This document shows, piece by piece, positions 35,401-59,304 of a stretch of 64,000 nt of DNA. Numbering within the stretch: position 1 is the first letter of the stretch; every line of letters starts with the position of its first letter. This DNA is from a virus (Duplodnaviria; Heunggongvirae; Uroviricota; Caudoviricetes), in the IMG/VR virus record IMGVR_UViG_3300031920_000341, positions 144,267 through 208,266 of that record, one strand, 5' to 3'. Under the pieces are notes generated by a model, which was given only the letters and a program-made list of their open reading frames with translations, did not search any database and was not told the DNA's origin. Position numbers and translations under genes: made by a program.

Positions 35401-36429
35401 ATGAATTCATTAGACAAGCAATATTTACAATCATTAGAAACAATTCTCAATACTGGTAATAAAAGAGGTGATAGAACAGGAACTGGTACAATAAGTATAT
35501 TTGATTATACAATAGATCATAATATACAAGAGGGTTTCCCATTACTTACAACTAAACGAGTTTGGTTTAAAGGTGTTTTACATGAATTGTTATGGTTTTT
35601 ATCTGGTGATATGAATATTAAATATCTTGTTAAGAATAATGTTAATATATGGAATGATTGGCCATATAAGAAGTATACTGAAAATGTAGCTAATCCATTA
35701 TCAATGGAAGAGTATGTTAAGAAAATTATTGAAGATGATGATTTTGCAAAACAATATGGTGATGTCGGTCGTATATATGGTGCACAGTGGTTAAATTGGA
35801 CGGATACGACAGAGCGTGTTAATGGAGATGAAACTATACGTAAGCGTATTGGATTAAATCAAATAGATAACTTGATACATACGCTTAAAACTAACCCAGA
35901 GGATAGACGAATGATTGTTACTGCATGGAACCCTGCTGAAATTAAAGAAGCTGCACTTCCAAGTTGTCATTATAATTTTCAATGTTATTCTGAAGAACTT
36001 ACCGATCAAGAACGTGTTAATATAATAAACGAAAGATTTAATAATAAATGTAAAGTTAATCCAGAAACATTGCAAGACTTAGAAGCTTTTGGTATTCCAA
36101 AACGTAAATTATCATTGAAATGGGCGGGTCGTTCAATTGATTCCTTTTTAGGTGGACCGTTTGATATAGCATCATATGGATTATTTTTAATAATGCTTGC
36201 ACAAGTAACAAATCATATTCCACATAGATTAATTAGTACATTTGGTGATTATCATATTTATATGAATCATATAAATCAAGTGAAACAGCAATTACAAAAT
36301 GAAGGGCATGATTTACCAATCGTAAAAATTAATCCTGATATAAAATCAATTTATGATTTTAAGTATAAAGATTTTGAATTAATTAATTATAAACATGATG
36401 GTACAATAAAAGCACCAATTAGTGTTTAA
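35401..36429 (+). CDS. thyA: thymidylate synthase
   Basis: RTGTGTISIFDYTIDHN...GFPLLTTKRVWFKGVLHELLWFLSGDMN and active-site ALPSCHYNFQCY. Carries insertions in the small domain, as in some Gram-positive/phage ThyA. Confidence 0.9.
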   Translation: MNSLDKQYLQSLETILNTGNKRGDRTGTGTISIFDYTIDHNIQEGFPLLTTKRVWFKGVLHELLWFLSGDMNIKYLVKNNVNIWNDWPYKKYTENVANPLSMEEYVKKIIEDDDFAKQYGDVGRIYGAQWLNWTDTTERVNGDETIRKRIGLNQIDNLIHTLKTNPEDRRMIVTAWNPAEIKEAALPSCHYNFQCYSEELTDQERVNIINERFNNKCKVNPETLQDLEAFGIPKRKLSLKWAGRSIDSFLGGPFDIASYGLFLIMLAQVTNHIPHRLISTFGDYHIYMNHINQVKQQLQNEGHDLPIVKINPDIKSIYDFKYKDFELINYKHDGTIKAPISV

Positions 36430-43462: not shown

Positions 43463-43473
43463 AATAAAATATT

Positions 43474-43683
43474 ATGTGGGCAAACCGAATTACTTTAGAA
43501 CGATTTATACATCACGATGCAGCAAAGGTGAAAATACAAAGCAAATTAGATGAAAAAGGTGCAACTGATGAATGGATAACAGATTTACACATATTTGCAG
43601 ATGGTGGATATGTTGGATATAAGGTAACATTATCAGATAAATCGTGTTTTACAATTTTTGATAATGGAAAAGAAATTAAATAA
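43474..43683 (+). CDS. hypothetical protein
   Basis: 69 aa. Confidence 0.3.
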   Translation: MWANRITLERFIHHDAAKVKIQSKLDEKGATDEWITDLHIFADGGYVGYKVTLSDKSCFTIFDNGKEIK

Positions 43684-44510
43684 TGATAAATACACCATTT
43701 AATTATACTGGAAGCAAATATAATTTGCTTGAATATATTTTACCTGAGTTAGATTACAGCAAACCATTCTTTGTTGATTTATTTGCAGGTGGCGGTTCAG
43801 TATATACTAATGTTGTAGATCAATATACCAATATACTTGTTAATGATATAATAGTTGATTTAATTGGAATACACAAAGGACTTATTGATAGTGATGATAT
43901 TATTGAAGCAACTAAATCTATTTGTCCGGACAAAAATAATCCTGAACAGTTTTTATCATTAAGAGAAAATTATAATAAAAACCCAACACCAGAAAAGCTA
44001 TGGGCATTAATGTTATCTTCTACAAATAATATGATGAGATTTTCAGGCGGCAAGAACGGTAAGCCATTTAAATATAATCAAACATTTGGTAAACGTACAT
44101 GGAATTCTAACACTGATACTAAAGTTATTAAATTTGTAAATCACATTAGATTATATAAAGATAATATTCACTTTAGCTCAAAACACTTTGCCGATATACC
44201 AATTGAAACAAATGATTTTATGGTTTATATCGATAGTCCATATACAGGAAGTGATGCAGGATATAATTGTTATTGGAATAATGATGATGATTTAAAACTT
44301 TATAATTATATTAAAAAGTTAGATTCAGTCGGTGCATCATTTATGATATCTGGAATACTAGGTGAACATAAAAAAGGAATACGTTGGGAATTGATTGATA
44401 AGTTAATTGCAGATGGTTACAAGTATAAATTAATCGATTTCAATTACAATAAAGTTGCTAGAAAGAAAGAAGAAAAAAATTCAAATGAAATAATTATAAT
44501 GAATTATTAA
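43683..44510 (+). CDS. dam: DNA adenine methyltransferase, Dam/D12 class
   Basis: N-terminal NYTGSKYNLLEYIL and FFVDLFAGGGSV (SAM-binding FxGxG); catalytic YIDSPY (DPPY variant). Confidence 0.8.
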   Translation: MINTPFNYTGSKYNLLEYILPELDYSKPFFVDLFAGGGSVYTNVVDQYTNILVNDIIVDLIGIHKGLIDSDDIIEATKSICPDKNNPEQFLSLRENYNKNPTPEKLWALMLSSTNNMMRFSGGKNGKPFKYNQTFGKRTWNSNTDTKVIKFVNHIRLYKDNIHFSSKHFADIPIETNDFMVYIDSPYTGSDAGYNCYWNNDDDLKLYNYIKKLDSVGASFMISGILGEHKKGIRWELIDKLIADGYKYKLIDFNYNKVARKKEEKNSNEIIIMNY

Positions 44511-44511
44511 G

Positions 44512-44584
44512 AAGAGTTACCTAAGTGGTTAAGGGGGCCGTCTGCAAAACGGTTATTCAAGGGTTCGAATCCCTTACTCTTCTC
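44512..44584 (+). tRNA. tRNA-Cys (anticodon GCA)
   Basis: Perfect 7-bp acceptor GAAGAGT/ACTCTTC, anticodon stem GCCGT/ACGGT with loop CTGCAAA, T arm AAGGG-TTCGAAT-CCCTT, discriminator U73 (Cys identity element). Confidence 0.85.
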
Positions 44585-44638
44585 TGGTGCTGACAATTCT
44601 TACTTTTATGTTTCAATTATATTTCTTATATTTGTATT

Positions 44639-45727
44639 ATGAAAAAAATAATTATTTTTGAATGCGATATTTGCAGAAATCAATATAGAGTTGAAAATCA
44701 TGATAGTATTGAAAAAGCAAAGATAGAGTGTGAAGCATGTGAAGCACGTGGATATGCTGATCCAAATCGTATTGATCATTATGTAATTAATCAAATAATA
44801 GATGGTGGTATTAGAATGACATTTTGTAATTTACCTTTTAGTGTTAATAAGCACCATCTAAGAGCTACATCATGGGCGGCCAGAGATCAATTTTTTAAAA
44901 ACACAGAAAATAAAATTATTCCAACAATAAATGATAATTATGGTGAAATGGTTTGTGCTGGTGGAAATGATAGTTTTATAGAAGCTATGTCTAATGTAGA
45001 ATTTTACAAAAGCAAAAAGGTTGTTGAATTTGGACCACACTTTTTAAGAATGGTTAGATATATGAGAAGCATTGGTTTACCTGCAAAATATTGGAATGGC
45101 GAAAGTGTTGTAATATATGATAAAGAACTTCCAACCAATGAAGAAGATTTTCTTCCACAAACAGAAGAACAGAAAGAAGAAGCAATTAGAAGTAAAACCA
45201 TGATAATTGTTGAACCTGTACTTAAACCTACAATAAAAGATTACAAAATACTTAAGGTAGACTTAGAAGAATTAGAAAAGTATAAAAAGGAAGGGTACAG
45301 TATATTTAAGCGAAGAGCAATATATTTTACCGATTATTCATATAGTGAAAAGGTACAATATGAAGAATTAGAAGGTATACTTAATAAATTTAGAAGACGT
45401 GGTAAAATAATCTTTGATAAGGATATAAAAATAACAAATTCACCACCATTCGATATGTCATTTCAAATATTATTTTTTGATTACGGCGGCGTAATGGGAG
45501 TTGGCGCAGATGATATGATATTTTCACATTGTAAACATCTTGTGCTTGATGCCAAAAAGAATCCACATAAGGATTATATCATAACAAGTGCATTTTCTAG
45601 CTTTGTTGGTTACATGAAAGAAGCAATGGAAGAATTTGGTTATTATACTGGAGATGATGTTCAAGAAAACATATATTTTGGAATTAATAATTATTTAAAG
45701 AAAAATAATTTATTTAAAGAAAAATAA
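44639..45727 (+). CDS. hypothetical protein with N-terminal Cys-rich zinc-finger-like motifs
   Basis: CDICRNQ...CEACEARG; C-terminal FFDYGGVMGVGADD weakly HAD-like. Confidence 0.35.
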   Translation: MKKIIIFECDICRNQYRVENHDSIEKAKIECEACEARGYADPNRIDHYVINQIIDGGIRMTFCNLPFSVNKHHLRATSWAARDQFFKNTENKIIPTINDNYGEMVCAGGNDSFIEAMSNVEFYKSKKVVEFGPHFLRMVRYMRSIGLPAKYWNGESVVIYDKELPTNEEDFLPQTEEQKEEAIRSKTMIIVEPVLKPTIKDYKILKVDLEELEKYKKEGYSIFKRRAIYFTDYSYSEKVQYEELEGILNKFRRRGKIIFDKDIKITNSPPFDMSFQILFFDYGGVMGVGADDMIFSHCKHLVLDAKKNPHKDYIITSAFSSFVGYMKEAMEEFGYYTGDDVQENIYFGINNYLKKNNLFKEK

Positions 45728-45728
45728 T

Positions 45729-46547
45729 ATGAAAGCAAATAATATGACAATTAGTGTGCCAACAGGACCTTGTGATAAATGTCCTTATTGTATTTCTAAA
45801 ATGACGCCTAGCGTTGAAACCAATATTGAAAATTTTTGGGGTAATTTTGATAAAGCAATGGCATATGCTGACAAAGCTGGTGTTACTACTGTATTGATTA
45901 CCGGTAAAGGTGAACCAATTGATAATATTGAACAGTTACAAACAGTTGTTAATGATTTGGCTAGACTTTCTTTTATTGTTGAATTGCAAACCAAACTTGT
46001 AACAAATAAAGATCTTAAAACAATAAAGGATGGTGATTTATATAATGTAGATGTATTTGCCATTTCAGTTGATAACATGAATCAATTATCGAAAATATAT
46101 AAACTTCATACTTATTATCCTAATGCTGTTATACGTATTACTTTTAATGTCAATGACAAGCTAAGCGGGTTTCTTGATAATCCACTTATCATGGATAAAA
46201 TGTTTGAGGACCTTAAAAATAATGGTGTACGTCAGGTGACATTCAGACTACTTACAATTCCAAATCACAGATTAAATACATATGAATCAGATGAAGTTGC
46301 TGATTATATAAAAAAATATACAACAATTGATATATTTAGTAGAATTTCATTATATGTAAAACCACATCGTGTAATACGTACACTTAATTTCGGTCCTGTT
46401 GTTTTTGATGTTAATGGAATATCTGTAACAGTTATGGATTATTGTATACAGGATAAAGAATCTGGAGATAATATAAGAAGTTTAATTTATCATTCTGATG
46501 GTCACATGTATACATCGTGGTCCAGTCTGGCAAGCATAATTTGGTAA
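45729..46547 (+). CDS. radical-SAM-like protein with non-canonical cysteine motif
   Basis: GPCDKCPYC (CxxCxxC rather than CxxxCxxC) followed by TGKGEPIDN resembling the radical-SAM GGEP motif. Confidence 0.35.
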   Translation: MKANNMTISVPTGPCDKCPYCISKMTPSVETNIENFWGNFDKAMAYADKAGVTTVLITGKGEPIDNIEQLQTVVNDLARLSFIVELQTKLVTNKDLKTIKDGDLYNVDVFAISVDNMNQLSKIYKLHTYYPNAVIRITFNVNDKLSGFLDNPLIMDKMFEDLKNNGVRQVTFRLLTIPNHRLNTYESDEVADYIKKYTTIDIFSRISLYVKPHRVIRTLNFGPVVFDVNGISVTVMDYCIQDKESGDNIRSLIYHSDGHMYTSWSSLASIIW

Positions 46548-46548
46548 T

Positions 46549-46791
46549 ATGAGTAACATAAAAAAATCCAATAGGCAAACAGCAAACTTTGAAATACTTA
46601 ATGAGTTATCAGAGTATTTTACTAAATATCCCGATATTAGGTTTAATCAAGCATTATTCAATTTAAATGTACTAGAAGTTATTAATTCAAGAATCAATGG
46701 ACCTTATGTTGTAGATAATCATCATGAGGAACCTAACATAACACTTAAAAAAATAAAAGATACAAAAGAAAAATTTGCTAAACAGAAATAA
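46549..46791 (+). CDS. hypothetical protein
   Basis: 80 aa. Confidence 0.3.
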   Translation: MSNIKKSNRQTANFEILNELSEYFTKYPDIRFNQALFNLNVLEVINSRINGPYVVDNHHEEPNITLKKIKDTKEKFAKQK

Positions 46792-47044
46792 TATGGATCA
46801 TTTTGGAATAATTAAAGCATCTTGTGGAGTATGTTGTTCAAAAATTATACTTTGTCCTAATTGTGAAATTTCAACATTGAAAACAAATAGATTGAAACTA
46901 GAACTTCAATCTGAAATATCAGGAAAATTGAATATGTGGCCAGGTAATGGTGGATTTAAATATTCTGATCTATATGACACACTTAGTGAATTAATGAAAC
47001 ATAAGAAAAACTATCAAATAGTAAACTATGAAACAACACCTTGA
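46775..47044 (+). CDS. hypothetical Cys-rich small protein
   Basis: CGVCCSKIILCPNC. Confidence 0.3.
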   Translation: MLNRNNMDHFGIIKASCGVCCSKIILCPNCEISTLKTNRLKLELQSEISGKLNMWPGNGGFKYSDLYDTLSELMKHKKNYQIVNYETTP

Positions 47045-47070
47045 TAGTACAGAATTAATATACAAATAAT

Positions 47071-47421
47071 ATGGACACACAAAAATATTTTGATGAATTA
47101 GATAAGCTTCAAGAATACATGGGAATGTATATTCAATTATTGCCACATCTTGTTGAATATGGCGGTATGAGATTACATAGACCATATTTACCCACACTTG
47201 AATATTTCAATGAATTTTATGACAATCCTAGTTATTCTTTAGCAAAGGCACACTTTAAAGATTCTATTGTTAAATATCCTTCTGGTACAATTGCTATGTA
47301 CCATGGCCATGGATTAGGGATTCCTGATGGTATTAAAAATAGATTATGTAATTATTGGATGGGTATTAAATTTTATACAAAAAATAACGTAAACGGAAAA
47401 TATGAAAACACCACACCCTGA
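47071..47421 (+). CDS. hypothetical protein
   Basis: 116 aa. Confidence 0.35.
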   Translation: MDTQKYFDELDKLQEYMGMYIQLLPHLVEYGGMRLHRPYLPTLEYFNEFYDNPSYSLAKAHFKDSIVKYPSGTIAMYHGHGLGIPDGIKNRLCNYWMGIKFYTKNNVNGKYENTTP

Positions 47422-47524
47422 CAGGATAGAAGCTAAACCTTATACAGGATTTAATATGGTTTTTGCCGAGCGTTTATTTAATTATGAACCTAAAGGATTA
47501 CATATAAATGAACTTGATCGTAAT

Positions 47525-47992
47525 ATGTTAAAGCAGATGAGATTTGATCTTATTTATTTACGTATGGCAGATGAATGGTCAAAAAATTCTTGTTGTACAA
47601 GAAAGAAAGTTGGATCGATTATTGTAAATGATAATAAGATAATATCCGATGGTTATAATGGAATGCCAAGCGGTTTTGAAAATCAATGCGAAGAACTTGT
47701 GTCTGGTAAAACTAAATGGAATGTACTGCATGCTGAAGCAAATGCTTTAATGAAATTGACGCAATCTAGTGATTCTGCAGAAGGATCCACAGTGTATCTA
47801 ACTTTTTCTCCTTGTAGAGAATGTAGCAAGCTCATGCACCAGGCAGGTATAAAACGTTTAGTATTTACTAGGACACATTCTAATGTTGATGGACTTCACT
47901 TTTTACATGATGCCGGAATTGAAATATGGAGATATCCTCATCCAGATTTTAATGAGTTTGATAAACTAAATAAAATGATTAATGAAAAATAA
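47525..47992 (+). CDS. dCMP deaminase
   Basis: VLHAEANAL (HxE zinc ligand/catalytic Glu) and SPCRECSKLM (PCxxC). ORF is open from 47402, but homology begins near MLKQMRFDLIYLRMADEW, so start set at 47525. Confidence 0.8.
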   Translation: MLKQMRFDLIYLRMADEWSKNSCCTRKKVGSIIVNDNKIISDGYNGMPSGFENQCEELVSGKTKWNVLHAEANALMKLTQSSDSAEGSTVYLTFSPCRECSKLMHQAGIKRLVFTRTHSNVDGLHFLHDAGIEIWRYPHPDFNEFDKLNKMINEK

Positions 47993-48020
47993 TATCTTAT
48001 TGTAACATAGTTTCATATTT

Positions 48021-48052
48021 AAAAAGGACGCATTTAATGCGTCCTTTCTTTA
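48021..48052 (+). terminator. intrinsic terminator
   Basis: AGGACGCAT-TTA-ATGCGTCCT followed by TTCTTT; a second palindrome (48082-48108, ACGCA...TGCGT) may terminate the convergent minus-strand gene. Confidence 0.65.
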
Positions 48053-48131
48053 TTTAAGCAACTTATACTCTGGAAATGAAAAAACGCACCAGGGGTCTCC
48101 TAATGCGTCATAAAATGAAAATTTGTGTATG

Positions 48132-48407
48132 TTATTTAGTAACCATATTGGCAAAAGATAAATTACTTTCAAATACATCAATATAAAGTTCATACTCACT
48201 TTCTTCAGTAAAAGCAATTAAATCTTTTTTTAAGAATTCACAAAACGCAGTTAACAATTCCTTTCGGTTGCTAACATGTTGTATACGTAATTGTTTTTTT
48301 AGTGCCTTTATATGTTTTTTGTGGTCAGAATAATATACATATTCACCATTTTTGTCTGTTACAGTACTATCTCCTGTTAAACTTGTAATTCTTTTTATTT
48401 TATCCAT
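48132..48407 (-). CDS. hypothetical protein
   Basis: 91 aa, minus strand. Confidence 0.35.
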   Translation of the reverse strand: MDKIKRITSLTGDSTVTDKNGEYVYYSDHKKHIKALKKQLRIQHVSNRKELLTAFCEFLKKDLIAFTEESEYELYIDVFESNLSFANMVTK

Positions 48408-48418
48408 CTTAATTTACT

Positions 48419-49369
48419 TTATTTACTATTATTGGATAGTTCTAACTCTTTTGCTAAAAAATACTTTCCTAATTCAATTTTTTCTTTAAGTGTAGCAGAT
48501 TTTAGTATTTCTTGTTTTTGTAGTTCAAGTTCTGTATTTAATTTTATTTGCTCTTGTTTTTTATTTTCCATTTCCAATAATAAATTAATAGTCTGTTCTA
48601 TTTTGGGATTTGCATTTAATGTATATGAAACACTGTCTACATGCATTCCAAGTGAATGTGGTACAAGATTACAATCACGCTTAGGATTTCCCTTTTTGTT
48701 TTTATCTAATGTATATATTGTTTTATTCGATTCAATAAAAGAATGAAATTGAAGTTTACCATTAATAAGTTGATCATTTAATAAACCTGTTATTATATCC
48801 ATTGTTTCTTGTTTTTTGTTTATAACATCAGATAATGATACGATTGGTGGCATTGAGTGTATAATATTTATTAATACTTTTTCTTGATGCTGTCGTATAT
48901 GTATTGCTTCGGTAAAATTCAATAATGTTTCTGGTGATGCTTTATCTAAATTATATGTAACTTTAGCATCCAATGATATAATTATACCATCTTGTGTTTT
49001 AAGTGGTAAACTTTTAAATTCATATGTGGTTGATTTTTGAAATGGAATAATATCATATAATCCAATATATGCTTGTGCTTTATTCCAAAATGTAATTGAA
49101 TCAATTTTTGAATAATCTTGATAGTGTCCTTTACCAATAAGGAATACATATCCTTCATTTGGTTGTGGATATTTCTTTTCTACTTTAACATGGAAATATA
49201 CTAGCATTAAAAACACTGATATAGCCACAAGTAATTTAACCAAAGTAAAACCTTTCTTACTTGCTGGTTCATTAAATCCATTTAGATTATAACGTTCATC
49301 TTTTATTGTTTTCATTTTTTTATTATTAAACATGTATATTATAAATTGAAAATTCAAATTTAGAAACAT
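48419..49369 (-). CDS. hypothetical membrane-anchored protein
   Basis: 316 aa, N-terminal hydrophobic anchor LVKLLVAISVFLMLVYF. Confidence 0.4.
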   Translation of the reverse strand: MFLNLNFQFIIYMFNNKKMKTIKDERYNLNGFNEPASKKGFTLVKLLVAISVFLMLVYFHVKVEKKYPQPNEGYVFLIGKGHYQDYSKIDSITFWNKAQAYIGLYDIIPFQKSTTYEFKSLPLKTQDGIIISLDAKVTYNLDKASPETLLNFTEAIHIRQHQEKVLINIIHSMPPIVSLSDVINKKQETMDIITGLLNDQLINGKLQFHSFIESNKTIYTLDKNKKGNPKRDCNLVPHSLGMHVDSVSYTLNANPKIEQTINLLLEMENKKQEQIKLNTELELQKQEILKSATLKEKIELGKYFLAKELELSNNSK

Positions 49370-49525
49370 CTGAAAGTAATTTATAAGGTGGCACTTGAGG
49401 TGTTGGAGATAATATTAATTCATTTACTCCACTACTAAAAGTATATGTAATATCCTCATAAAAAACATTTGAAATAATTTTTCTATTTTTTTCCATTTTT
49501 AATTATTATAAAACAAAGATACGAG

Positions 49526-50179
49526 ATGATTACGAAACAGAAAAGTAATATAAATAACAAAAAGCATTATTACTATATGTCTAAGATATTCCAGCTCCCA
49601 TTATTTGAAAGCTATGCGCCAAAAGTATTATTAATTGTAGATGTACAAAAACCATTTAAAGAATTCTTTCCATGTGAATATCTTAAAAAATTAAAATGGT
49701 ATGCTGGACAGTTTGAAACAGTATATCAAATCTGGGACGAAACTGAGGCAGAAGCACCTAGTTATCAATTTCATAATGAAGTACAAACAATAGTGAAACA
49801 ATACGGTGGAGACGTTGATGAATCTGATATGGAAAATATGACAGATGAATCAGCAGTAATTTTTAAACAAGAAGAATATGATTATAATACTAAGTTTGAT
49901 TTAAAAGATGGTGGTGCAATATATTATATTGGAAATGGCGGTGAAGGACCAGGTCATGAATGGTTTAGAGTATCAAAAGAATATATAGAATTTCTTAATG
50001 AATTAAAAAGACTTAATGCAGAAATCATATTGGTTGGCGGCGGTAAATTTGAATGTATATATGATGTTGAAATATCATTACTTGATGCTGATATAACTTT
50101 TAATTATAACGATCAATTAGTATACAATGCGAATAGTGGTTGTGATCAAAATCAGGATGAAGAAATTATTCAGGATTAA
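49526..50179 (+). CDS. hypothetical protein
   Basis: 217 aa. Confidence 0.35.
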   Translation: MITKQKSNINNKKHYYYMSKIFQLPLFESYAPKVLLIVDVQKPFKEFFPCEYLKKLKWYAGQFETVYQIWDETEAEAPSYQFHNEVQTIVKQYGGDVDESDMENMTDESAVIFKQEEYDYNTKFDLKDGGAIYYIGNGGEGPGHEWFRVSKEYIEFLNELKRLNAEIILVGGGKFECIYDVEISLLDADITFNYNDQLVYNANSGCDQNQDEEIIQD

Positions 50180-50678
50180 AATCATTTAAGTTTTTATCGT
50201 CCAATGAGTGTACTACAAGTTTGGTCATTATCATATTTAATAAATTAATATCATTTTGATTATTTCCAATTTCACTTAATGTTTTTAATCGTTTAATCTC
50301 AGGTAAGCTATTAATAAGCGTATTTTTTAAATTATGCGCGATATGTATTTTGCTATCGCCTTTTATTTTTAAACCATAAAATTCTTCAATATCCTTACCA
50401 TTTAAAATTTCAAATGTACTGTTAGCTACGGGATCACCGATATCTTCACATATAACATAATACATTTGTTCAGAATTTGGATCGCTTGTATTTGGCGTTG
50501 GCAATGGAATTAACATTAATACTAATGCTTTATCATCATTACGAGTTAACCATATTTCCATATTCCTAAAGCTAACTGATTGATAACGTGCCCATTTAAT
50601 TTTATCAGTATTAATTGGCGGTATATTTGCTTTATCAATTACATTAAAAAATTTTTCCATGTCATATTTTATGCTCAT
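50166..50678 (-). CDS. hypothetical protein
   Basis: 170 aa minus strand. Confidence 0.35.
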   Translation of the reverse strand: MSIKYDMEKFFNVIDKANIPPINTDKIKWARYQSVSFRNMEIWLTRNDDKALVLMLIPLPTPNTSDPNSEQMYYVICEDIGDPVANSTFEILNGKDIEEFYGLKIKGDSKIHIAHNLKNTLINSLPEIKRLKTLSEIGNNQNDINLLNMIMTKLVVHSLDDKNLNDFNPE

Positions 50679-50868
50679 TTAATATTTCTTTTATTTTTGA
50701 TATTTTATTTGTTAAATCTTTAAGATATTGTTTTTTGCCTTTTGTCATTTTGTCATAACTCCATTGACGTTCAAGTTTATCATGTGATTCTATTATCATT
50801 TTAAGATAATCTGGTAATACAGATATTTCAAAATAAGTTCCAGCAATTTTAATTCGTTCAGTATTCAT
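50662..50868 (-). CDS. hypothetical protein
   Basis: 68 aa minus strand, overlaps downstream minus gene by 17 nt. Confidence 0.3.
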   Translation of the reverse strand: MNTERIKIAGTYFEISVLPDYLKMIIESHDKLERQWSYDKMTKGKKQYLKDLTNKISKIKEILNEHKI

Positions 50869-50982
50869 TTTAATTTTATATAAAACTTTAAATTAGTTTT
50901 AATGCAAAGATAATTAATTTATTTGATAAGGAAAAGTAAACTTTAATAAAATTTTTGATATAATGATAAAACATTTCAACTT

Positions 50983-52080
50983 ATGCAAAAAGAATATACA
51001 GGAGATATTATTATCGGGATCAGTGGTAAATTATGTTCAGGAAAAGACACGGTAGCAGATTATTTGATTAAACGTATGGGTCATATAAATTTCACAAAGG
51101 AATCATTTGCACTAAATCTTAAAAAGATTATAGCAACAACATGTGGTACTGATTTAGAAACACAAATGACACAAGAAGGTAAAAATCAAGTTTGTCCAAT
51201 TTTCAATAAAACATATGGTACAATGCAGCAAGAAATTGGCGGTACCGTATTAAGAAGGTATGATGAAGATTATTGGTTAAAGTCTTTATTCGCAAAGCAT
51301 AAGACTGGTCAGAGTTGGATAATTTCTGATGTAAGATATCCTAATGAAGCAAACTACATTAAAAGTATAGGTGGAATATTAATTAGAGTTGAGGGTGATC
51401 CTGGTAAAATTAGAGCAAGTTCTACACGAGATATGACACATTCTTCTGAAATATCACTTGATAATTATGATTTCTTTGATATAACATGGCAGAACGAACC
51501 GCCAATCGGTAATTTATCTAAATTAGTTGGTGAGGTTGATAAATTAATACAACGTCGTCAACCTACTTATAAACCTAAATTTATGTTAAAGGCTATTGTC
51601 GCAATAGATGAAGCTAATGGTATCGGCAAAGATAATAAATTATTGGCTAAATTACCCAATGATATGAAACATTTTGTTAATTTAACAAAAGGCCATACTG
51701 TAATAATGGGCAGGAAAACCCATGAATCAATTGGATTTCCATTAAGTGAGCGGGTTAATATAATTTTAACACGAGATAAAAAATTCAAAGCAGATGGTTG
51801 TTTAGTCGTACATACGATTAAAGATGCTTTAACATTGGCTAGAAAATATCCAGTTGATTGTTATGTTATGGGCGGAGCAGAAATATATGAACAGATGCTA
51901 CCGTACTGCAATGAAATAGAAGCAACGGTAATACATTCAGTATTTGAAGCTGATGTATTTTTCCCACAACTTAATATATTAGAATGGGAATTAATAGGTG
52001 CAGCAGGTAACGAAGTTGATGAAAGAAATAAGTGGCCACATACGTTTGAAACATACGAAAGAATTAGTAGCTCATTTTAA
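50983..52080 (+). CDS. bifunctional deoxynucleoside monophosphate kinase (T4 gp1-like) / dihydrofolate reductase fusion
   Basis: N-terminal half: P-loop GISGKLCSGKDTVADYL, YWLKSLFA and IISDVRYPNEANYIK resemble T4 dNMP kinase (SGVKRSGKDTTADFI, YWVKLFA, IVPDTRQDHEMD). C-terminal half: classic DHFR IVAIDEANGIGKDNKLLAKLPNDMKHF...VIMGRKTHESIGFPLSERVNIILTRD. Single uninterrupted 365-aa frame. Confidence 0.75.
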   Translation: MQKEYTGDIIIGISGKLCSGKDTVADYLIKRMGHINFTKESFALNLKKIIATTCGTDLETQMTQEGKNQVCPIFNKTYGTMQQEIGGTVLRRYDEDYWLKSLFAKHKTGQSWIISDVRYPNEANYIKSIGGILIRVEGDPGKIRASSTRDMTHSSEISLDNYDFFDITWQNEPPIGNLSKLVGEVDKLIQRRQPTYKPKFMLKAIVAIDEANGIGKDNKLLAKLPNDMKHFVNLTKGHTVIMGRKTHESIGFPLSERVNIILTRDKKFKADGCLVVHTIKDALTLARKYPVDCYVMGGAEIYEQMLPYCNEIEATVIHSVFEADVFFPQLNILEWELIGAAGNEVDERNKWPHTFETYERISSSF

Positions 52081-52082
52081 AT

Positions 52083-52118
52083 TACTTTTTGATTTCATAA
52101 TTTTTCCGTATATTCGCG
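52083..52118 (+). promoter_or_regulatory. bipartite promoter-like element, copy 5 (TACTTTTTGATTTCA-N11-TATATTCGCG)
   Basis: Most divergent copy; upstream of ATG 52146. Confidence 0.45.
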
Positions 52119-52145
52119 TATAAATAAAAAATAAATAAAAACTTT

Positions 52146-52874
52146 ATGATTTCGAAAATACTAAAAATAGTAATATTTCTGGGATTTTTTATAATAAATC
52201 CAGGGCCCAAAATTAATGATGCTCAAGTTGTGGACAACTGGCATCCTCCTAAAGAAACTGTTAAACAAGAAATTGTTAAACCAGAGGTAATTGAAACTAA
52301 ATTTGTATTCAATATACCAAAGAAAAAATCACATCAAGCATTTTTACGATCGATGGGATTTAGAGAATCAACAAATCGATATGACACGATAAACAAATAC
52401 GGTTATCTTGGAAAGTATCAATTTTCAGAAAGAACACTTAAAGGGCTCGGCATAAACACCGAGCCTCAACTCTTTTTAAAGGATAGAGACTTACAAGAGT
52501 ATGCAATGCATAAGTATTTGAAACTCAATAGAAAGATACTCAGTAATATTATAAATCGATATAATGATACAATACTTTATATTAATGAGCGAGAGATACC
52601 AGATACATTAATTTTAGTTACACATGAACTCATTAATGATACATTATTGATAAGTGATACTGCTTATGCATATACTACAAAGATAATAGTAGATACTCTT
52701 TATTTAACTGAAAGCGGGATTCTTGCCGCTGCACACTTAGGTGGCGCAGGTAATGTTAAGAAGTTTTTTAAAGAACTTGATAATAATGATAAATATAATC
52801 CTAAAGATAAATTTGGTACTAGTCTAACTGATTATATGTTAAGGTTTTCTGGATATTCATTAGCACTACGATAA
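52146..52874 (+). CDS. hypothetical secreted/membrane protein, lytic-transglycosylase-like motif
   Basis: N-terminal hydrophobic segment; FRESTNRYDTINKYGYLGKYQF resembles the GH23 E-S...G-L-M-Q catalytic region. Preceded by promoter-like element 52083-52118. Confidence 0.3.
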   Translation: MISKILKIVIFLGFFIINPGPKINDAQVVDNWHPPKETVKQEIVKPEVIETKFVFNIPKKKSHQAFLRSMGFRESTNRYDTINKYGYLGKYQFSERTLKGLGINTEPQLFLKDRDLQEYAMHKYLKLNRKILSNIINRYNDTILYINEREIPDTLILVTHELINDTLLISDTAYAYTTKIIVDTLYLTESGILAAAHLGGAGNVKKFFKELDNNDKYNPKDKFGTSLTDYMLRFSGYSLALR

Positions 52875-52947
52875 TATTTTTTATTTAAGTAAAACTATAA
52901 CGTATTTTTGAATAAAATATATATATTGATAAAATAATGTATTATGA

Positions 52948-53856
52948 ATGGATTATTGTATATATCATTCACGAGATTTAGATGGGTTCAGCTCAGCGGC
53001 AATTGTGAAAAGAACATGGAATAAATGTGAATTAATTGGATATGATTATGGTGATGAACTTCCAGAAATACCTGATGGTAAAAATGTAATAATGGTAGAT
53101 ATATCATTAGCAAAAAAAGATAAAGATAAAGACAATCCAATGGAATTTATGATTGACCTTGCAAATAGGTGCAATCAGTTAGTTTGGATTGATCACCATA
53201 AATCTGCCATATTGGATTATGAAAACAGTAAAGATCAATTTCCTGATACATTCAGAGCATTTGTTAAATCAGGTGTAGCTGCATGTGAATTAACATGGGA
53301 AACACTTAATGCCGGTAAAAAAATGCCACTTGCAATAAAATGGCTAGGTATTTATGATACATTTAGAAAAGAAGAAGCTGGTGATACATGGGATACTGGT
53401 GTTATGCCATTTCAATATGGTTTAAGGGTTGCATGTAATGGACCTGAAGAATTTCCAAAAGAACTTTTTGATAATAATTCTTCAGCTCTTATACCTTATG
53501 TGGAAATGGGTAAAATTATATTAAAATATAATGATCAGTTCAATAAGAATTATGCTAAGTCTAGACAAGTGATTCAATTTGCTGGGTTAAATTGTGTTAC
53601 AATGAATACACCAATGAAAGCATCAACATCATTTGATTATGCATTTTCAAATACCGAAAATGATTTTATGATGGCATATAATAGAACTAAAGATATGTGG
53701 AATATAAGTTTTTATTCTGATGGCGATAAGGTTGATTGTAGTTTAATCGCTAAGCATTTTGGTGGTGGTGGACATGCTGGAGCATCTGGTTGTATGATGG
53801 ATGATAAAACTTTACTTGGTGTATTAAATGGCGAATTCACCGAAGCACTATTTTAA
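52948..53856 (+). CDS. DHH-family phosphoesterase (NrnA/RecJ-like)
   Basis: Motif I YHSRDLDGFSSAAI, motif II IMVDISL, motif III WIDHHKS, DHHA1 GGGGHAGASG. Confidence 0.75.
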   Translation: MDYCIYHSRDLDGFSSAAIVKRTWNKCELIGYDYGDELPEIPDGKNVIMVDISLAKKDKDKDNPMEFMIDLANRCNQLVWIDHHKSAILDYENSKDQFPDTFRAFVKSGVAACELTWETLNAGKKMPLAIKWLGIYDTFRKEEAGDTWDTGVMPFQYGLRVACNGPEEFPKELFDNNSSALIPYVEMGKIILKYNDQFNKNYAKSRQVIQFAGLNCVTMNTPMKASTSFDYAFSNTENDFMMAYNRTKDMWNISFYSDGDKVDCSLIAKHFGGGGHAGASGCMMDDKTLLGVLNGEFTEALF

Positions 53857-53886
53857 TATTAAATATATAAAAGAAAACAACATTCA

Positions 53887-54351
53887 ATGAATAATTTTAA
53901 ACAATCAGGAATAAATATTGGATATTATTATGTTATTGCTATTAGTTTTGTATTGTTATTATTGGGATTATTAATAATAAATCCAAGTAAAAGAACTATT
54001 GAAGATGAACTTATAAAATTTGACATATATCATACTGAATCTATTTGTATTAATACCGATAATAATAATATAAAGAAAATTACATATATTATTGATGCTA
54101 CTGTTAAATTTAGATGTTATCTTAGTGATACTACATTAATACCACAATATAAAGAATTTGTCACTAATGATATGCGAATGAAAATAAAGGATGGACTCAG
54201 AGAATTGTATAACAATAAAGATAAAGATCATAATGAAATAGAACTTATACATACATTTGATAATGTTTTGCCATATTTAAAAATAAATCGCATATATACA
54301 GAATTAATAGAAGTATATAAATTAACTATTGATTCAACATATAATAAATAA
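53887..54351 (+). CDS. hypothetical membrane protein
   Basis: N-terminal TM YYYVIAISFVLLLLGLLII. Confidence 0.35.
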   Translation: MNNFKQSGINIGYYYVIAISFVLLLLGLLIINPSKRTIEDELIKFDIYHTESICINTDNNNIKKITYIIDATVKFRCYLSDTTLIPQYKEFVTNDMRMKIKDGLRELYNNKDKDHNEIELIHTFDNVLPYLKINRIYTELIEVYKLTIDSTYNK

Positions 54352-54784
54352 TGTAATGTCACAAAAAGCTGGAATATTTATAATACACGATAATCAAATC
54401 TTAGTTGGACATCCTACAAGACATCCGCAGGATTTTCTTAGTATTCCCAAAGGCAAGATTGATAAAGGGGAAGATTCCGTTGGGGCAATGCTAAGAGAAT
54501 TAGAAGAAGAAACATCATATCTACTTGAGGACTTTGATACAGACATGGCACCAGAATATGTTGGTAGGTTTGTCTATAGAAACAAGAAACACGCATTACA
54601 TGTTTTTTATATTATAATTAACAGTAAACCAGAAAAGGAAGCTGTATGTACTTCTATTGTTGATAATGATCCAACTTTCTTAGAAGTTGATTGGTATACG
54701 TGGATATCATTCGAAGATGTACCAAAATATTGCCATGAGGCTCAAATAAGCGCATTTAAGGCACTTTTAAATAAAATCAAATAA
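54329..54784 (+). CDS. NUDIX hydrolase
   Basis: Nudix box GKIDKGEDSVGAMLRELEEETS (Gx5Ex7REUxEExGU). Confidence 0.8.
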   Translation: MIQHIINNVMSQKAGIFIIHDNQILVGHPTRHPQDFLSIPKGKIDKGEDSVGAMLRELEEETSYLLEDFDTDMAPEYVGRFVYRNKKHALHVFYIIINSKPEKEAVCTSIVDNDPTFLEVDWYTWISFEDVPKYCHEAQISAFKALLNKIK

Positions 54785-54787
54785 AGT

Positions 54788-55129
54788 ATGTTTAAAAAAT
54801 TAGTTAAGGCAATAGAGTTAATGTATGTGAATCAAATAATGAAAAAATTTGGTACACATTTACATGAGCTTGATAATATAATGAGTAAGCAATGGAATAA
54901 ATTAGGGGAAGGTGAAGAACTTGAGAAAGTCAATGAGTTTATTAAATTACATAAATCATATGATTTACCGGCATATAAAAAAATGCTAAGTAGTATACCA
55001 ATTAATCTTAACATATATCAATTATTTGCATTCTATATTAATACTATTGAATTTGGAATTAATCCAAATTCATTAACATCATTGTATAGAGGAATAAACA
55101 TGATATTACATTATAAAGAAGGCGAATAA
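54788..55129 (+). CDS. hypothetical protein
   Basis: 113 aa. Confidence 0.35.
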   Translation: MFKKLVKAIELMYVNQIMKKFGTHLHELDNIMSKQWNKLGEGEELEKVNEFIKLHKSYDLPAYKKMLSSIPINLNIYQLFAFYINTIEFGINPNSLTSLYRGINMILHYKEGE

Positions 55130-55148
55130 ATAACAATAAATCAAAACA

Positions 55149-55526
55149 ATGGAACCTGATGTAATAAATCAAACAATTAAAACTAATATTGGTAATACAA
55201 TTTTTAGAACTAAATTGGGAAAAGTTATAGATACTGGAAAATATGATCATCCCAGTATGCTTAAGTTTATTGTTAATTTACAATCAATGAGCGAGATATT
55301 AAGTCAATATGGTTATAGTGTTGATTTTATGAATATACAGAATAAATTAGTATGCAGTATATTTAATTCAAAAGAAGAGGAAAATGAATATAGTCTTTAT
55401 TTTGACTATGATGATAATGTTGCTGGAATATTTGATACTGCACTTAACGTAATTCTTCCTGTTGATAGTGATATTGATCTTTTATTTAATATGTTTACAA
55501 GTGGATATCTAAAAATTTTACCATAA
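55149..55526 (+). CDS. hypothetical protein
   Basis: 125 aa. Confidence 0.35.
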   Translation: MEPDVINQTIKTNIGNTIFRTKLGKVIDTGKYDHPSMLKFIVNLQSMSEILSQYGYSVDFMNIQNKLVCSIFNSKEEENEYSLYFDYDDNVAGIFDTALNVILPVDSDIDLLFNMFTSGYLKILP

Positions 55527-55545
55527 TAAATTAAATTAATAAAGT

Positions 55546-55776
55546 ATGATTTTAATTAAAATTACAGAAAAAGGCGAAAAGGGTGCTTGGCACAATAAAT
55601 ATGTTGACAACCTCTTTCTTGCTACACCCAATGGTGACGACTTCGCCATAAATTTTCTATCTAATCTTGATAGCGATAAACTTAATAACTTCAGTGGAAA
55701 ATATATTCCTCGTTCAAGTTGTTTAGTAATGCAAAAGCCAAAGCAATTTGGTGTAACTGGTATCGTAAATAAGTAG
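55546..55776 (+). CDS. hypothetical protein
   Basis: 76 aa. Confidence 0.3.
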   Translation: MILIKITEKGEKGAWHNKYVDNLFLATPNGDDFAINFLSNLDSDKLNNFSGKYIPRSSCLVMQKPKQFGVTGIVNK

Positions 55777-55778
55777 AT

Positions 55779-56759
55779 ATGAAAAAAGTAAAGGCAATTG
55801 TATTATTCAGTGGAGGGCTGGATAGCATGCTCGTGGCAAAAATGTTATATGAGCAGAATATAGAAGTAATACTTTTATATATTGATAATGGTTTTGAATC
55901 TAATGATCGATCAGATGAATTTAAAATTTTTGCTAAAAGTATTAATTCTAAATTAATTATTGAAAATGTTATTGATGATTTCTGCAGTACTGTACTTATT
56001 AATCCAACAAAAGGATATGGCAAAGCCATGAATCCTTGTATTGATTGCCATGGATATATGATCAACATAGCAAGTAAGATAGCCGAGCAAGAAGGTGCTA
56101 GCTTTATTGCAACAGGTGAAGTTATCGGTCAACGTCCTATGTCTCAAACCAGAGATGCAATGTTAATGGTTGACAATTTATCAAATTCTAAAGTTCCTAT
56201 AGTTCGTCCGCTATCAGCAAAGATAATGGATGAAACTAAAGTAGAAACCGATGGTATAATAGATAGAGAAAAGTTTGAAGGCATAGCAGGAAGAACAAGA
56301 ACAAGACAAATTGAATTGGCTGAATCATTAGGATTAAATAATTATCCTAATCCAGCGGGTGGATGTTTACTTACAGAAGTTAAATTTGCTAATAAACTTT
56401 CAAATGCTTTAAAGGTAACAAAATACATAAATAGTGATGATATTACGGTTGTAAGACACGGTAGAATGTTTCAAGTTGGAAATGCTTTATTTGTGTTAGG
56501 AAGAAATAAAGAAGATAATGAAGCACTTAGGAAATTAAATAAGAATAAGTATTTGGTGATAGAACCACCAGTTGAGAGAGGTCCAGTTGCTGTAGTATCA
56601 GGTGAATTTGATTTAGATGAAGCATTAGTAATGGCTTCTATTATGTTAAGGTATTGTGATATTGATCAAAATATTGCACATCAAGTTAAGTTTACTGAAT
56701 TTATATTTGATGTATTACCAATGAGCGAAAAAGAAATTGAGGGTTATAAACTAACGTAA
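55779..56759 (+). CDS. PP-loop ATP pyrophosphatase, ThiI-like (putative sulfurtransferase / nucleic-acid-modification enzyme)
   Basis: PP-loop SGGLDS at the N-terminus; ATGEVIGQRPMSQTRDAMLMVDN...PIVRPL aligns with the ThiI GESLGQVASQT...IRPL block; PCIDCH cysteine pair. Confidence 0.55.
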   Translation: MKKVKAIVLFSGGLDSMLVAKMLYEQNIEVILLYIDNGFESNDRSDEFKIFAKSINSKLIIENVIDDFCSTVLINPTKGYGKAMNPCIDCHGYMINIASKIAEQEGASFIATGEVIGQRPMSQTRDAMLMVDNLSNSKVPIVRPLSAKIMDETKVETDGIIDREKFEGIAGRTRTRQIELAESLGLNNYPNPAGGCLLTEVKFANKLSNALKVTKYINSDDITVVRHGRMFQVGNALFVLGRNKEDNEALRKLNKNKYLVIEPPVERGPVAVVSGEFDLDEALVMASIMLRYCDIDQNIAHQVKFTEFIFDVLPMSEKEIEGYKLT

Positions 56760-56765
56760 TAAACA

Positions 56766-57137
56766 ATGACAGCAATAGAAGATTTATCAGAAATCAAATT
56801 TGAACATTCAGAACGTATACATAAAATTCTTATTCATAAGAGACATAATAAAGATATACAAAAATGGATGAGAAAATTAGGGGTTATTGTAAGAAATGAA
56901 ACTAAAATAGATAATAATGTTAAATTAATTTTTTATTGCAGTAAAATTCAATATGATACAATACTTGAAATATTAGAAGTATATTTAGTTAAGCCAAAAC
57001 AATTACCCTTAATAGATATAATGGTATCTTCAGCTAGTATGATTGAATCTTTTGGACTTGACGATATCTGGGATAATACTAAAAATAAGTTAGCCAATCT
57101 ATTATTTTATATGGTTGGTCCAAAAAAATCTAAATAA
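56766..57137 (+). CDS. hypothetical protein
   Basis: 123 aa. Confidence 0.35.
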   Translation: MTAIEDLSEIKFEHSERIHKILIHKRHNKDIQKWMRKLGVIVRNETKIDNNVKLIFYCSKIQYDTILEILEVYLVKPKQLPLIDIMVSSASMIESFGLDDIWDNTKNKLANLLFYMVGPKKSK

Positions 57138-57426
57138 AATGAGTGTACAAAACGGACGTGTCCTTGTTCATCTAAAATTTGATCAACATGACTCAACATC
57201 AGAAGGAACAGTATTAAAAATAAATACACATAGTATTACAATAAAATGTGCAATGGATACAATACTTAGTTTCGATGCAAAAACAGGTAAAGCAAAAGGA
57301 GGAAACCATTGGGTAAATCCACTTGAAGCACAACGTGCATACCAGTTAGGAATTGATAATGCAGTTGATAATGTAGCAAGAGCAAAAGCTGGCAAGAAAA
57401 GACCAGGTACAATAATTCACGATTAA
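57115..57426 (+). CDS. hypothetical protein
   Basis: 103 aa. Confidence 0.35.
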   Translation: MVQKNLNKMSVQNGRVLVHLKFDQHDSTSEGTVLKINTHSITIKCAMDTILSFDAKTGKAKGGNHWVNPLEAQRAYQLGIDNAVDNVARAKAGKKRPGTIIHD

Positions 57427-57437
57427 AATTTAAAGAT

Positions 57438-57728
57438 ATGGTACAATTAGACGCAAAAAAAGAAAATGGGAATATAATAATAACTGAAGATAGTTTTGAT
57501 CATTTACTAAATTGCTTAGACAATCAGAAGTTTATTCCTGAGTATGACAAACAAACCGAGGATCATAAAACAATGTTCCAGGATTATATTGATGATTTCA
57601 ATATTCAATGTAGAAACCTATTACATAATGGTGGATACTATCCAATAGCAAATCAACTTAAATTATTTGAAGATGAATCAGATAAAGCATTTGATGCATT
57701 ATTTGATGCAGTACAAAAAGAACTTTAA
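57438..57728 (+). CDS. hypothetical protein
   Basis: 96 aa. Confidence 0.35.
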   Translation: MVQLDAKKENGNIIITEDSFDHLLNCLDNQKFIPEYDKQTEDHKTMFQDYIDDFNIQCRNLLHNGGYYPIANQLKLFEDESDKAFDALFDAVQKEL

Positions 57729-57739
57729 TATTTACAGAT

Positions 57740-58045
57740 ATGGAATTTTATAGATACGAATGGATAGGGTTAGAATCAGCAAGAGATTCACTTCCTATTA
57801 TTAAGTTAAAACTAAGGATATTTAAATTACTTAGAGAGACTGAAAAGGGTTATTGGATTGATTTGGAATATAAAGATAGATGGATTTCTAAAACTTCAAC
57901 AAAACGGTATGCTTACCCTACCAAAAAAGAAGCATTAAATAATTTTATAATAAGAACAAAACGTAGATTGCAGTTTGTTGAAGCTACAATACATGGTTGT
58001 AAACAATCACTACGTTTAGCAGATATTGAATTAAATAAAATTTAA
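57740..58045 (+). CDS. hypothetical protein
   Basis: 101 aa. Confidence 0.35.
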   Translation: MEFYRYEWIGLESARDSLPIIKLKLRIFKLLRETEKGYWIDLEYKDRWISKTSTKRYAYPTKKEALNNFIIRTKRRLQFVEATIHGCKQSLRLADIELNKI

Positions 58046-58046
58046 T

Positions 58047-58082
58047 GACTTTTCTGTTTCATTTGCTTTTAGTATATTTGTA
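58047..58082 (+). promoter_or_regulatory. bipartite promoter-like element, copy 6 (GACTTTTCTGTTTCA-N11-TATATTTGTA)
   Basis: Upstream of ATG 58100. Confidence 0.55.
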
Positions 58083-58099
58083 TCGTAATTAAAATATTA

Positions 58100-58267
58100 T
58101 GACAAAAACAGGAAAAAGACGTAAAAAAGATAAGCGTCTCAATAAAATCACAGTATCTGGCTATTCTATTCACTGGTCTAGTGAATGGTCAATACGTAGT
58201 AAACTTGCCAAACATTATAAAAGACTTCAAAGTTTATTGTTTAATCAAAAAGAGGAAGGATATTAAT
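58100..58267 (+). CDS. hypothetical small basic protein
   Basis: 55-aa ORF (MTKTGKRRKKDKRLNKITVSGYSIHW...), first ATG 18 nt after promoter-like element 58047-58082; not in the ORF track (<60 aa). Confidence 0.35.
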
Positions 58268-58477
58268 ATGTTTAGTTCAGGAAGTCATATTCATTCACTT
58301 ATATCAATGACATATATGTTTGATGATATTAGAGAAAAGAATAAAGAGAAGTGTGATGAAATCGTAAACGAATATTGGGCAATAAGTAAATGGCCACGTA
58401 AGAAAAAGAAAAGACGAAGAAAAGAATTAAAAATAGATTATTCTATATTTTCTTGGGATTTATTTGGAAATTATTAA
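58268..58477 (+). CDS. hypothetical protein (start adjusted to MFSSGSHIH)
   Basis: ORF-track entry 58181-58477 overlaps the 55-aa ORF; first in-frame ATG after the latter's stop is 58268; basic C-terminus KKKKRRRK. Confidence 0.3.
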   Translation: MFSSGSHIHSLISMTYMFDDIREKNKEKCDEIVNEYWAISKWPRKKKKRRRKELKIDYSIFSWDLFGNY

Positions 58478-58519
58478 TTATAAAAATCTAATGATAAATA
58501 ATTAAAATAATTATGTACT

Positions 58520-58900
58520 ATGTCAGAAAATTTTAAAGTACCAATGTTTGAAGAATTTGATATGAAACCAATTGAAAATTTGATGGATGATGAAATTGAA
58601 AAGTTAAACAAAATAAAAGATACAGAACCAGAAACAGATATTGAAATAGAATCAGAAACCGATATCGATGAACCAGAAACCGAGTCTAATATAGAAGCAG
58701 ATATCGATGCAGCAATGCAATTATATCTTGATCTTAGAGATAGACTAGGCGAAATACAAGATACAATTGAAAATTCACCAAAAGAAGCATGGGTTGCATT
58801 ACATAATCATATGACAGAAATGTATAATGAAACACCTAGTGATCAATTCGATGAATTAGATGAATTGGTACTTCAGTTTTTAACTAAAAAAATTGGTTAA
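58520..58900 (+). CDS. hypothetical acidic protein
   Basis: 126 aa with TEPETDIEIESETDIDEPETESNIEADID acidic repeat. Confidence 0.35.
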   Translation: MSENFKVPMFEEFDMKPIENLMDDEIEKLNKIKDTEPETDIEIESETDIDEPETESNIEADIDAAMQLYLDLRDRLGEIQDTIENSPKEAWVALHNHMTEMYNETPSDQFDELDELVLQFLTKKIG

Positions 58901-59279: not shown

Positions 59280-59304
59280 TTTAATTCAATAAATATTTAA
59301 TATT

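Follow-up and report, generated by a model that had tools for sequence, protein, structure and literature searches.

An uncultivated, AT-rich jumbo phage, represented by a contig of about 208 kb, carries a gene in which a deoxynucleoside monophosphate (dNMP) kinase domain and a dihydrofolate reductase (DHFR) domain are joined in a single reading frame. The gene occupies positions 50983..52080 on the + strand of a 64,000-nucleotide (nt) stretch of this contig (positions 144,267 to 208,266 of IMG/VR virus record IMGVR_UViG_3300031920_000341), which was analysed as a whole and is called the window below. The same in-frame junction recurs in related proteins from different samples, both halves are under purifying selection, and key residues of both enzyme families are intact. 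We think it quite probable that the product is a bifunctional enzyme, which would act on both products of thymidylate synthase. Both halves belong to ordinary, known enzyme families; the novelty lies in the architecture alone and involves no new chemistry.

The gene is complete, consisting of one open reading frame (ORF) of 365 codons that begins with ATG, ends with TAA and has zero internal stops, with a predicted fusion product of 365 amino acids (aa) and 41.4 kDa. The remaining two forward frames of the same interval contain 33 and 56 stops. Because the window has a G+C content of 29.8%, stop codons are frequent; from base composition we estimate a probability of 0.089 that a random codon is a stop and of about 1.6e-15 that 365 codons stay open. 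The original prediction, made from the DNA letters and a list of ORFs, had claimed a single continuous frame without a stop, and this was upheld. An identical protein (P0001) is present in a public protein collection, on a 208-kb contig in JGI and Logan data.

To find relatives of the fusion protein, we searched 5.8 billion protein clusters with a word index and obtained three more proteins, from different samples, with the same in-frame junction. P0002 (contig L003) is 73% identical over 99% coverage and is encoded by a gene of 30% GC, P0003 (contig L002) is 55% identical over 97% coverage and is encoded at 53% GC compared with 32% for the window gene, and P0004 (contig L004) is a GC-rich, junction-spanning fragment of about 74-75% identity. 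Because L002 and L004 are GC-rich relative to the window gene, these sequences are not re-assemblies of one phage. P0004 was considered as a clean full-length fourth copy and rejected, since its contig looks chimeric or rearranged ahead of the last 60 kinase residues, and its junction alone was used as evidence; at L004 1-660, a frame-1 ORF with exonuclease- and helicase-like sequence runs into the last ~60 kinase residues, which lie in another frame. Downstream of the fusion gene, the window (52146-54784) and L002 (1301-4683) share the order cell-wall hydrolase-like protein, DHH/DHHA1 phosphoesterase and NUDIX protein, a synteny kept despite the 55% identity of the two fusion proteins.

Both halves of the gene bear the mark of selection. 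Between the window and L003, Nei-Gojobori estimates give a synonymous divergence (dS) of 1.5 and a ratio of non-synonymous to synonymous divergence (dN/dS) of 0.14 for the kinase half, and a dS of 1.8 with dN/dS of 0.09 for the DHFR half; in more distant fusion pairs, synonymous sites are saturated. Synonymous change is thus close to saturation yet the frame is intact, which places both halves under purifying selection. The linker between them (aa 193-200, 51559..51582; RQPTYKPK-F) is also conserved, with R192, Y196 and F200 invariant in an alignment of the junction-spanning sequences. As judged by these sequence comparisons, the fusion is genuine and conserved.

The C-terminal half (aa 201-360, 51583..52062) covers the Pfam family DHFR_1 (PF00186) from the first to the last of its 159 profile positions, scoring 173.9 bits (cut-off 25; E = 2.6e-51), and also matches PHROG 316, 'dihydrofolate reductase'. 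It begins at M201-LKAIVAIDEANGIGKDNKL, where the original prediction had placed the start of a DHFR. Searches of the PDB returned dozens of solved DHFRs, the best being 8uvz (E = 3.3e-37), with Bacillus and Staphylococcus DHFR structures at ~1e-35. In a full-length AlphaFold model, the predicted local distance difference test score (pLDDT) exceeds 90 over aa 201-350, and the best Foldseek matches of this half in BFVD are viral DHFRs whose root-mean-square deviation is ~2 Å. Individual residues were mapped by a profile-guided alignment with Escherichia coli FolA, in which the fusion numbering equals the E. coli numbering plus 200 (D27 becomes D227). In E. coli numbers, I5, A7, D27, F31, T35, M42-G43-R44, T46, S49, I50, L54, R57, G95-G96, Y100, T113 and D122 are kept in four of four fusion sequences. 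These include the catalytic D227, T315 and Y302 (E. coli D27, T113 and Y100), the folate-binding F231, L254 and R257, the NADPH-binding G243-R244-K245-T246 and the GG motif G297-G298, all of them invariant in the four. By homology, then, the C-terminal half is a full-length DHFR of the FolA type, predicted to carry out NADPH-dependent reduction of dihydrofolate.

The N-terminal half (aa 10-192, 51010..51558) is more divergent and was assigned by profile. Its P-loop (Walker A motif), GKLCSGKDT (G15-KLCSGKD-T23, 51025..51051), aligns by hmmalign with G8-VKRSGKD-T16 of bacteriophage T4 gp1, the T4 dNMP kinase, whose structure is 1DEK. The Pfam family DNMK (PF21448) scores 37.4 bits, above its cut-off of 27.1, with the match split over two stretches, the better at aa 10-55, and PHROG 139, 'deoxynucleoside monophosphate kinase', covers aa 9-192 with E = 2.7e-31. 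The domain boundaries that the original prediction had proposed to check by profile search were thus recovered, with DNMK above its cut-off and PHROG 139 and DHFR_1 covering the two halves in turn. A profile built from 32 homologues (A3) aligns with residues 2-239 of the 241 in 1DEK with E = 9.7e-22, ten orders of magnitude better than its match to the next family, animal phosphomevalonate kinase (PMK; 7xnd, 2e-12). An AlphaFold2 model of aa 1-199 has a pLDDT of 91.5 and a predicted template modelling score (pTM) of 0.85. We mapped the functional residues listed for 1DEK (PMC10653934, Table 2) onto the window protein by hmmalign; equivalents are kept for K37 (K47), D175 (D116), R177 (R118), E181 (E122), H206 (H153), T208 (S155), E209 (E156), N223 (N171) and W152 (W98), as well as for SGKDT of the P-loop. 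G15, G20, K21, D116, R118, E122, E156 and N171 are invariant in the 32 homologues. These alignments argue for a bona fide, minimal member of the gp1/DNMK family that is predicted to phosphorylate dNMPs. Automatic pipelines would call the whole protein a plain 'dihydrofolate reductase' and miss the kinase, and in related contigs the precomputed Pfam kinase match is just 'faint'.

Several observations weigh against reading the protein as a gp1-like kinase and a working DHFR that act together. On the kinase side, animal PMKs are structurally as close as T4 gp1: Foldseek against the PDB ranks the PMKs 7xnd and 3ch4 ahead of 1dek_A, which stands third (E = 3.5e-7, TM-scores of 0.66/0.55). Three arginines of the T4 enzyme are replaced (R11 by C18, R132 by G79 and R197 by G138), and its insertion of ~57 residues (about 67-125, with R68) is missing. 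Because these arginines and the R68-bearing insertion are absent, the substrate range of the kinase half may differ from that of T4 gp1. Both the insertion and R11, R132 and R197 are likewise missing from most of the 32 family members, and they would therefore seem to define T4 gp1 itself, not the DNMK family. The description 'T4 gp1-like' accordingly stands for family and fold, on the strength of the profile match, the P-loop and the retained functional residues; it does not extend to the insertion and the three arginines, and the single kinase sequence matches 1DEK with just E = 0.04. On the DHFR side, the Met20 loop is unusual (M20L, P21L, W22A and N23K), and R52 is replaced by F; P21-W22 gives way to L221-A222, with V in P0003. 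The mutual orientation of the domains has no confident prediction. In the full-length model, which was built from an alignment (A4) with three sequences over the kinase half and so has lower confidence there, pLDDT falls below 50 at aa 194-198 and the overall pTM is 0.51. The low confidence of the linker together with this pTM indicates two independently folded domains whose orientation to each other is not predicted, and hence lends no support to a channel between their active sites. Finally, a distance of 15 kb separates the fusion gene from the thymidylate synthase gene, thyA, so that the two are not neighbours.

Four other explanations were weighed. That the fusion is an error of assembly or sequencing, in which adjacent kinase and dhfr genes were merged by a stop lost from the consensus or by a frameshift, draws on the separate, neighbouring kinase and dhfr genes of Bacillus phages, where the spacer measures 14 nt in phiAGATE and 111 nt in BSP14; in the latter the two genes share a frame, and the spacer contains five stops. 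Against it, and against the frameshift that the original prediction had asked to be checked for, stand the in-frame junction shared by four independent assemblies from different samples and of very different GC, the invariant R192, Y196 and F200 of the linker and a dN/dS far below 1 on either side of the junction; we consider this explanation wholly improbable. Less remote, yet still unlikely, is dual expression, in which the ATG at 51583..51585 (Met201) would also give rise to free DHFR, as the original prediction had suggested. This ATG lies exactly at the DHFR N terminus, at the domain boundary, behind A/T-rich sequence; a Met occurs one codon later in P0002 and P0004; and initiation independent of a Shine-Dalgarno sequence is common in Bacteroidota. 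The position of the Met nevertheless shifts between relatives, and the junction of P0003 (L002) reads AAG TTC ACG CTC AAG, with ATG, GTG and TTG all absent. No Shine-Dalgarno-like sequence was found before the ATG at 51583, a generic promoter and terminator scan of the region was at chance (16 found against 14.4 expected), and the conserved linker points to selection on the joined form. From the aligned junctions, an independent DHFR start at this ATG does not appear to be a conserved property of the locus; because the internal ATG is not conserved, the fusion protein is the conserved product.

The other two explanations accept the fusion and question its activities. One half might be catalytically dead and serve as a scaffold or regulator, either as a kinase-like nucleotide sensor or as a DHFR-like tether of the kinase to ThyA. 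The missing equivalents of T4 R11, R132 and R197, the P-loop of P0003 (GKG in place of GKD) and the Met20 loop without P21 and W22 speak for such a reading, whereas every fusion sequence retains the family-invariant kinase residues and the canonical catalytic and cofactor residues of DHFR, both halves show a low dN/dS, and the 64-kb window holds no second DHFR or dNMP kinase. Loss of W22 was considered as a sign of a dead DHFR and rejected: among the 150 nearest DHFRs, 27 (18%) have another residue there (C, A, F, V, Y and others), so that its loss is common variation, and all other key residues are kept in the fusion. We judge a dead half decidedly improbable. The kinase might instead act on a substrate other than a dNMP, of the cofactor or isoprenoid type used by dephospho-CoA and phosphomevalonate kinases. 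PMK structures top the Foldseek list, Pfam P-mevalo_kinase (PF04275) scores 30.7 bits, and members of the family have been labelled variously as dephospho-CoA kinase or adenylate kinase (PMC4528723). That Pfam score nonetheless falls under its cut-off of 33.8, the profile favours T4 gp1 over PMK (9.7e-22 against 2e-12), the T4 contacts to the base and phosphate of the dNMP (D175, R177, E181, K37, H206 and E209) are conserved, and the genomic neighbours of such kinases are thyA or thyX, dhfr and dCMP deaminase genes. A non-dNMP substrate is accordingly very unlikely, and the preferred reading remains a dNMP kinase joined to an active DHFR.

The original prediction had also called the fusion unusual and proposed a search for it in related phages; database searches agree, placing it in one clade. 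An exhaustive HMMER pass over 1.84 billion representative proteins gave a single entry with both domains among the best 150, namely P0003, the representative of this clade; fusions scoring ~60 bits per domain would reach this list and more divergent ones would not. The other long proteins among the 150 combine DHFR or kinase with HAD, HIT, thioredoxin_9, 4HBT, DUF1599 or artificial GFP. Across 50,697 GenBank phage records the fusion was not found; in nine records the match extends over 80% or more of the query, and these are without exception Bacillus phages in which it is split over two separate genes. Three further pattern scans covered 80 loci each, a depth at which absence is not exhaustive: none of the 80 kinase loci listed from IMG/VR has a DHFR within 6 kb, none of the 80 DHFR loci listed from JGI metagenomes has the kinase (thyA adjoins DHFR in 67 of these 80), and none of the 80 DHFR loci listed from 185,579 GTDB genomes is fused. 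A described kinase-DHFR fusion was likewise not found in the full-text literature, with subscription journals outside its coverage.

Candidates from annotation were examined and set aside. The 'diacylglycerol kinase' entries of Tenacibaculum phage pT24 and Erwinia phage Wellington were rejected as fusions, being plain DHFRs of 172-176 aa; pT24 BPT24_210 (L166 3007-3537) and Wellington gp71 (L167 2504-3022) are single-domain proteins mislabelled in GenBank, probably through a propagated mis-annotation. A 537-aa 'DHFR' of Erwinia phage Desertfox was rejected as the same fusion, its N-terminal 363 aa being unrelated to the kinase profile: this part of gp122 gave no match to Pfam, the PDB or the DNMK profile (hhalign probability 0.1%). 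Gp122 (L168 1412-3025, PHROG 11777 type) has a DHFR domain just at residues 366-516 and is another phage DHFR fusion. P0117, a 594-aa protein matching in two stretches, proved to be an artificial GFP-DHFR construct and was also rejected.

The genomic setting suggests what the fusion would do. The window encodes, on the + strand, a thymidylate synthase, ThyA (35401..36429, 342 aa; Pfam PF00303, E = 6.2e-91; NCBIfam equivalog NF002496 at 332.8 bits, above its cut-off of 325), and a dCMP deaminase (47402..47992, 196 aa; Pfam PF00383, E = 2.1e-21). The ThyA protein exceeds the thymidylate synthase profiles (264-318 positions) in length by ~25-80 aa, and its match to them is broken into two or three separate stretches, a pattern suggestive of internal insertions. 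ThyA converts dUMP and methylene-tetrahydrofolate to dTMP and dihydrofolate. The dCMP deaminase would supply dUMP for this reaction, and the fusion protein would consume both products: its kinase half would catalyse ATP + dNMP to ADP + dNDP, with dTMP most likely among the substrates, sending dTMP towards dTTP, and its DHFR half would convert dihydrofolate and NADPH to tetrahydrofolate and NADP+, recycling the folate. With two independently folding domains joined by a conserved linker of ~8-10 residues, fusion would fix the stoichiometry of kinase to DHFR at 1:1 and keep the two co-localized.

A link between this kinase family and thymidylate synthesis is also suggested by relatives elsewhere. 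Bastille-like Bacillus phages (phiAGATE, Bobb, Bp8p and BSP14) have a conserved thyA - dNMP kinase - dhfr cluster (PMC4528723), and the essential TMP kinase of Pseudomonas putida is a gp1-family enzyme (PMC10653934). A stand-alone kinase 44% identical to the kinase half directly follows thyX with a 4-nt overlap in a different phage contig (L251 4279-5654), at a locus with no DHFR nearby. ThyX does not produce dihydrofolate, and the lack of a DHFR at that locus fits this. The fusion itself most likely arose when a kinase gene and an adjacent dhfr gene lost the stop codon and spacer that had kept them apart, for which the unfused kinase-dhfr order of the Bastille-like phages offers the simplest route.

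A bolder proposal, which we find doubtful, is that the protein serves as covalent core to a phage 'thymidylate metabolon', in which the DHFR half would dock ThyA and hand dTMP and dihydrofolate to both active sites, with the R-x-x-x-Y-x-x-x-F linker setting the geometry.

Elsewhere in the window, a T4-type large terminase (11818-13725) has its nearest relatives, at 31-36% identity, among huge uncultured phages, Sphingomonas phage PAU, Tenacibaculum phages PTm1 and PTm5 and Prevotella Lak phages. At 41-50% identity, the closest cellular DHFRs among the loci listed belong overwhelmingly to the Bacteroidota (Mucilaginibacter, Chryseobacterium and Flavobacteriaceae). DHFR relatives, base composition and terminase relatives tentatively suggest a host in the Bacteroidota. 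Ten tRNA genes (Arg x2, Leu, Ile, Cys, Pro, Asn, Thr, Lys and Asp) are scattered among metabolic genes in 38662-61650, and the tRNA-Pro gene is the sole nucleotide-level match of window positions 40000-60000 to GenBank phages (a crAss-like phage). Stop-codon recoding occurs in some related huge phages; here, the 54 + strand ORFs end in TAA (48), TGA (5) or TAG (1), and dense ORFs under the standard code give no sign of recoding. On the + strand, a promoter-like box, TGaTATAAT (50956..50964), precedes the start codon of the fusion gene by 24 nt. Five + strand genes have a TATAAT box 23-26 nt upstream, often after TTTTTGA or TG: those starting at 10449, 11019, 35401 (thyA) and 39573, and the fusion gene, which is also preceded by TATAAT in L002 and L003. 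Possibly the box is a phage promoter common to these genes, through which the thymidylate genes are regulated together. Two SPFH/Band 7 proteins are encoded on opposite strands at 34052-35281 and 48419-49369, which is unusual in a phage nucleotide-metabolism region. A 326-aa protein (55779-56759) combines a PP-loop ATPase (a ThiI/tRNA-methyltransferase-like HUP domain) with an NFACT-R_2 RNA-binding domain and is possibly a tRNA- or nucleic-acid-modifying enzyme.

Each half has close counterparts as a separate protein. With T4 gp1 (1DEK/1DEL), the kinase domain shares family, fold, the P-loop xSGKDT, D-x-R-x-x-x-E, H-x-[ST]-E and a C-terminal N, but T4 gp1 is a stand-alone protein of 241 aa, whereas the window domain has ~190 aa, is about 16% identical to it and carries a longer GDPxxIRxxSTRD loop in place of the T4 insertion. 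With chromosomal FolA (E. coli; 8uvz and 3jw3; Bacteroidota), the DHFR domain shares the full DHFR_1 family and 41-50% identity to Bacteroidota and Bacillota enzymes; unlike FolA, it stands behind a kinase and has LLAK in place of MPWN in the Met20 loop, and unlike most of the metagenomic DHFR loci listed it is not preceded by thyA. The Bacillus-phage cluster comprises the same three enzymes, in the order thyA, kinase, dhfr in phiAGATE and BSP14, with the kinase directly upstream of dhfr as in the fusion. There, however, the genes are separate, thyA adjoins them in place of lying 15 kb away, and the kinase is just 26% identical to that of the window. Other DHFR fusions in metagenomes and phages carry different partners (HAD phosphatase, HIT, thioredoxin_9, 4HBT thioesterase, DUF1599 and Pr2TM), and from these architectures DHFR appears readily to serve as one module of two-domain proteins.

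Two systems come closer in concept or biology. In the bifunctional DHFR-thymidylate synthase (DHFR-TS) of protozoa and plants, thymidylate synthase is located at the C terminus of DHFR. DHFR is likewise covalently joined there to an enzyme of the thymidylate cycle, with a rationale that couples the products of ThyA to their consumers; in the window fusion, by contrast, DHFR has a dNMP kinase as its N-terminal partner and ThyA is a separate protein, and Pfam gave no match to a Thymidylat_synt domain in the fusion protein. The dNTP synthetase complex of T4, described by Mathews and co-workers, reportedly assembles dNMP kinase, DHFR, thymidylate synthase, dCMP deaminase and other enzymes. That complex is non-covalent and its components are encoded by separate genes; in the fusion, one such contact would have become covalent. 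A kinase-DHFR contact has been proposed for the T4 complex and is hard to prove, so that a conserved, selected fusion provides strong comparative evidence of a physical kinase-DHFR partnership in phage dTTP supply; were the metabolon proposal true, the protein would be natural Rosetta-stone proof of the contact postulated for T4. The fusion also offers a one-polypeptide system for testing the kinetic gain from clearing both thymidylate-synthase products on one scaffold. By analogy, DHFR-TS would be its nearest conceptual parallel and the T4 dNTP synthetase complex its nearest biological one.

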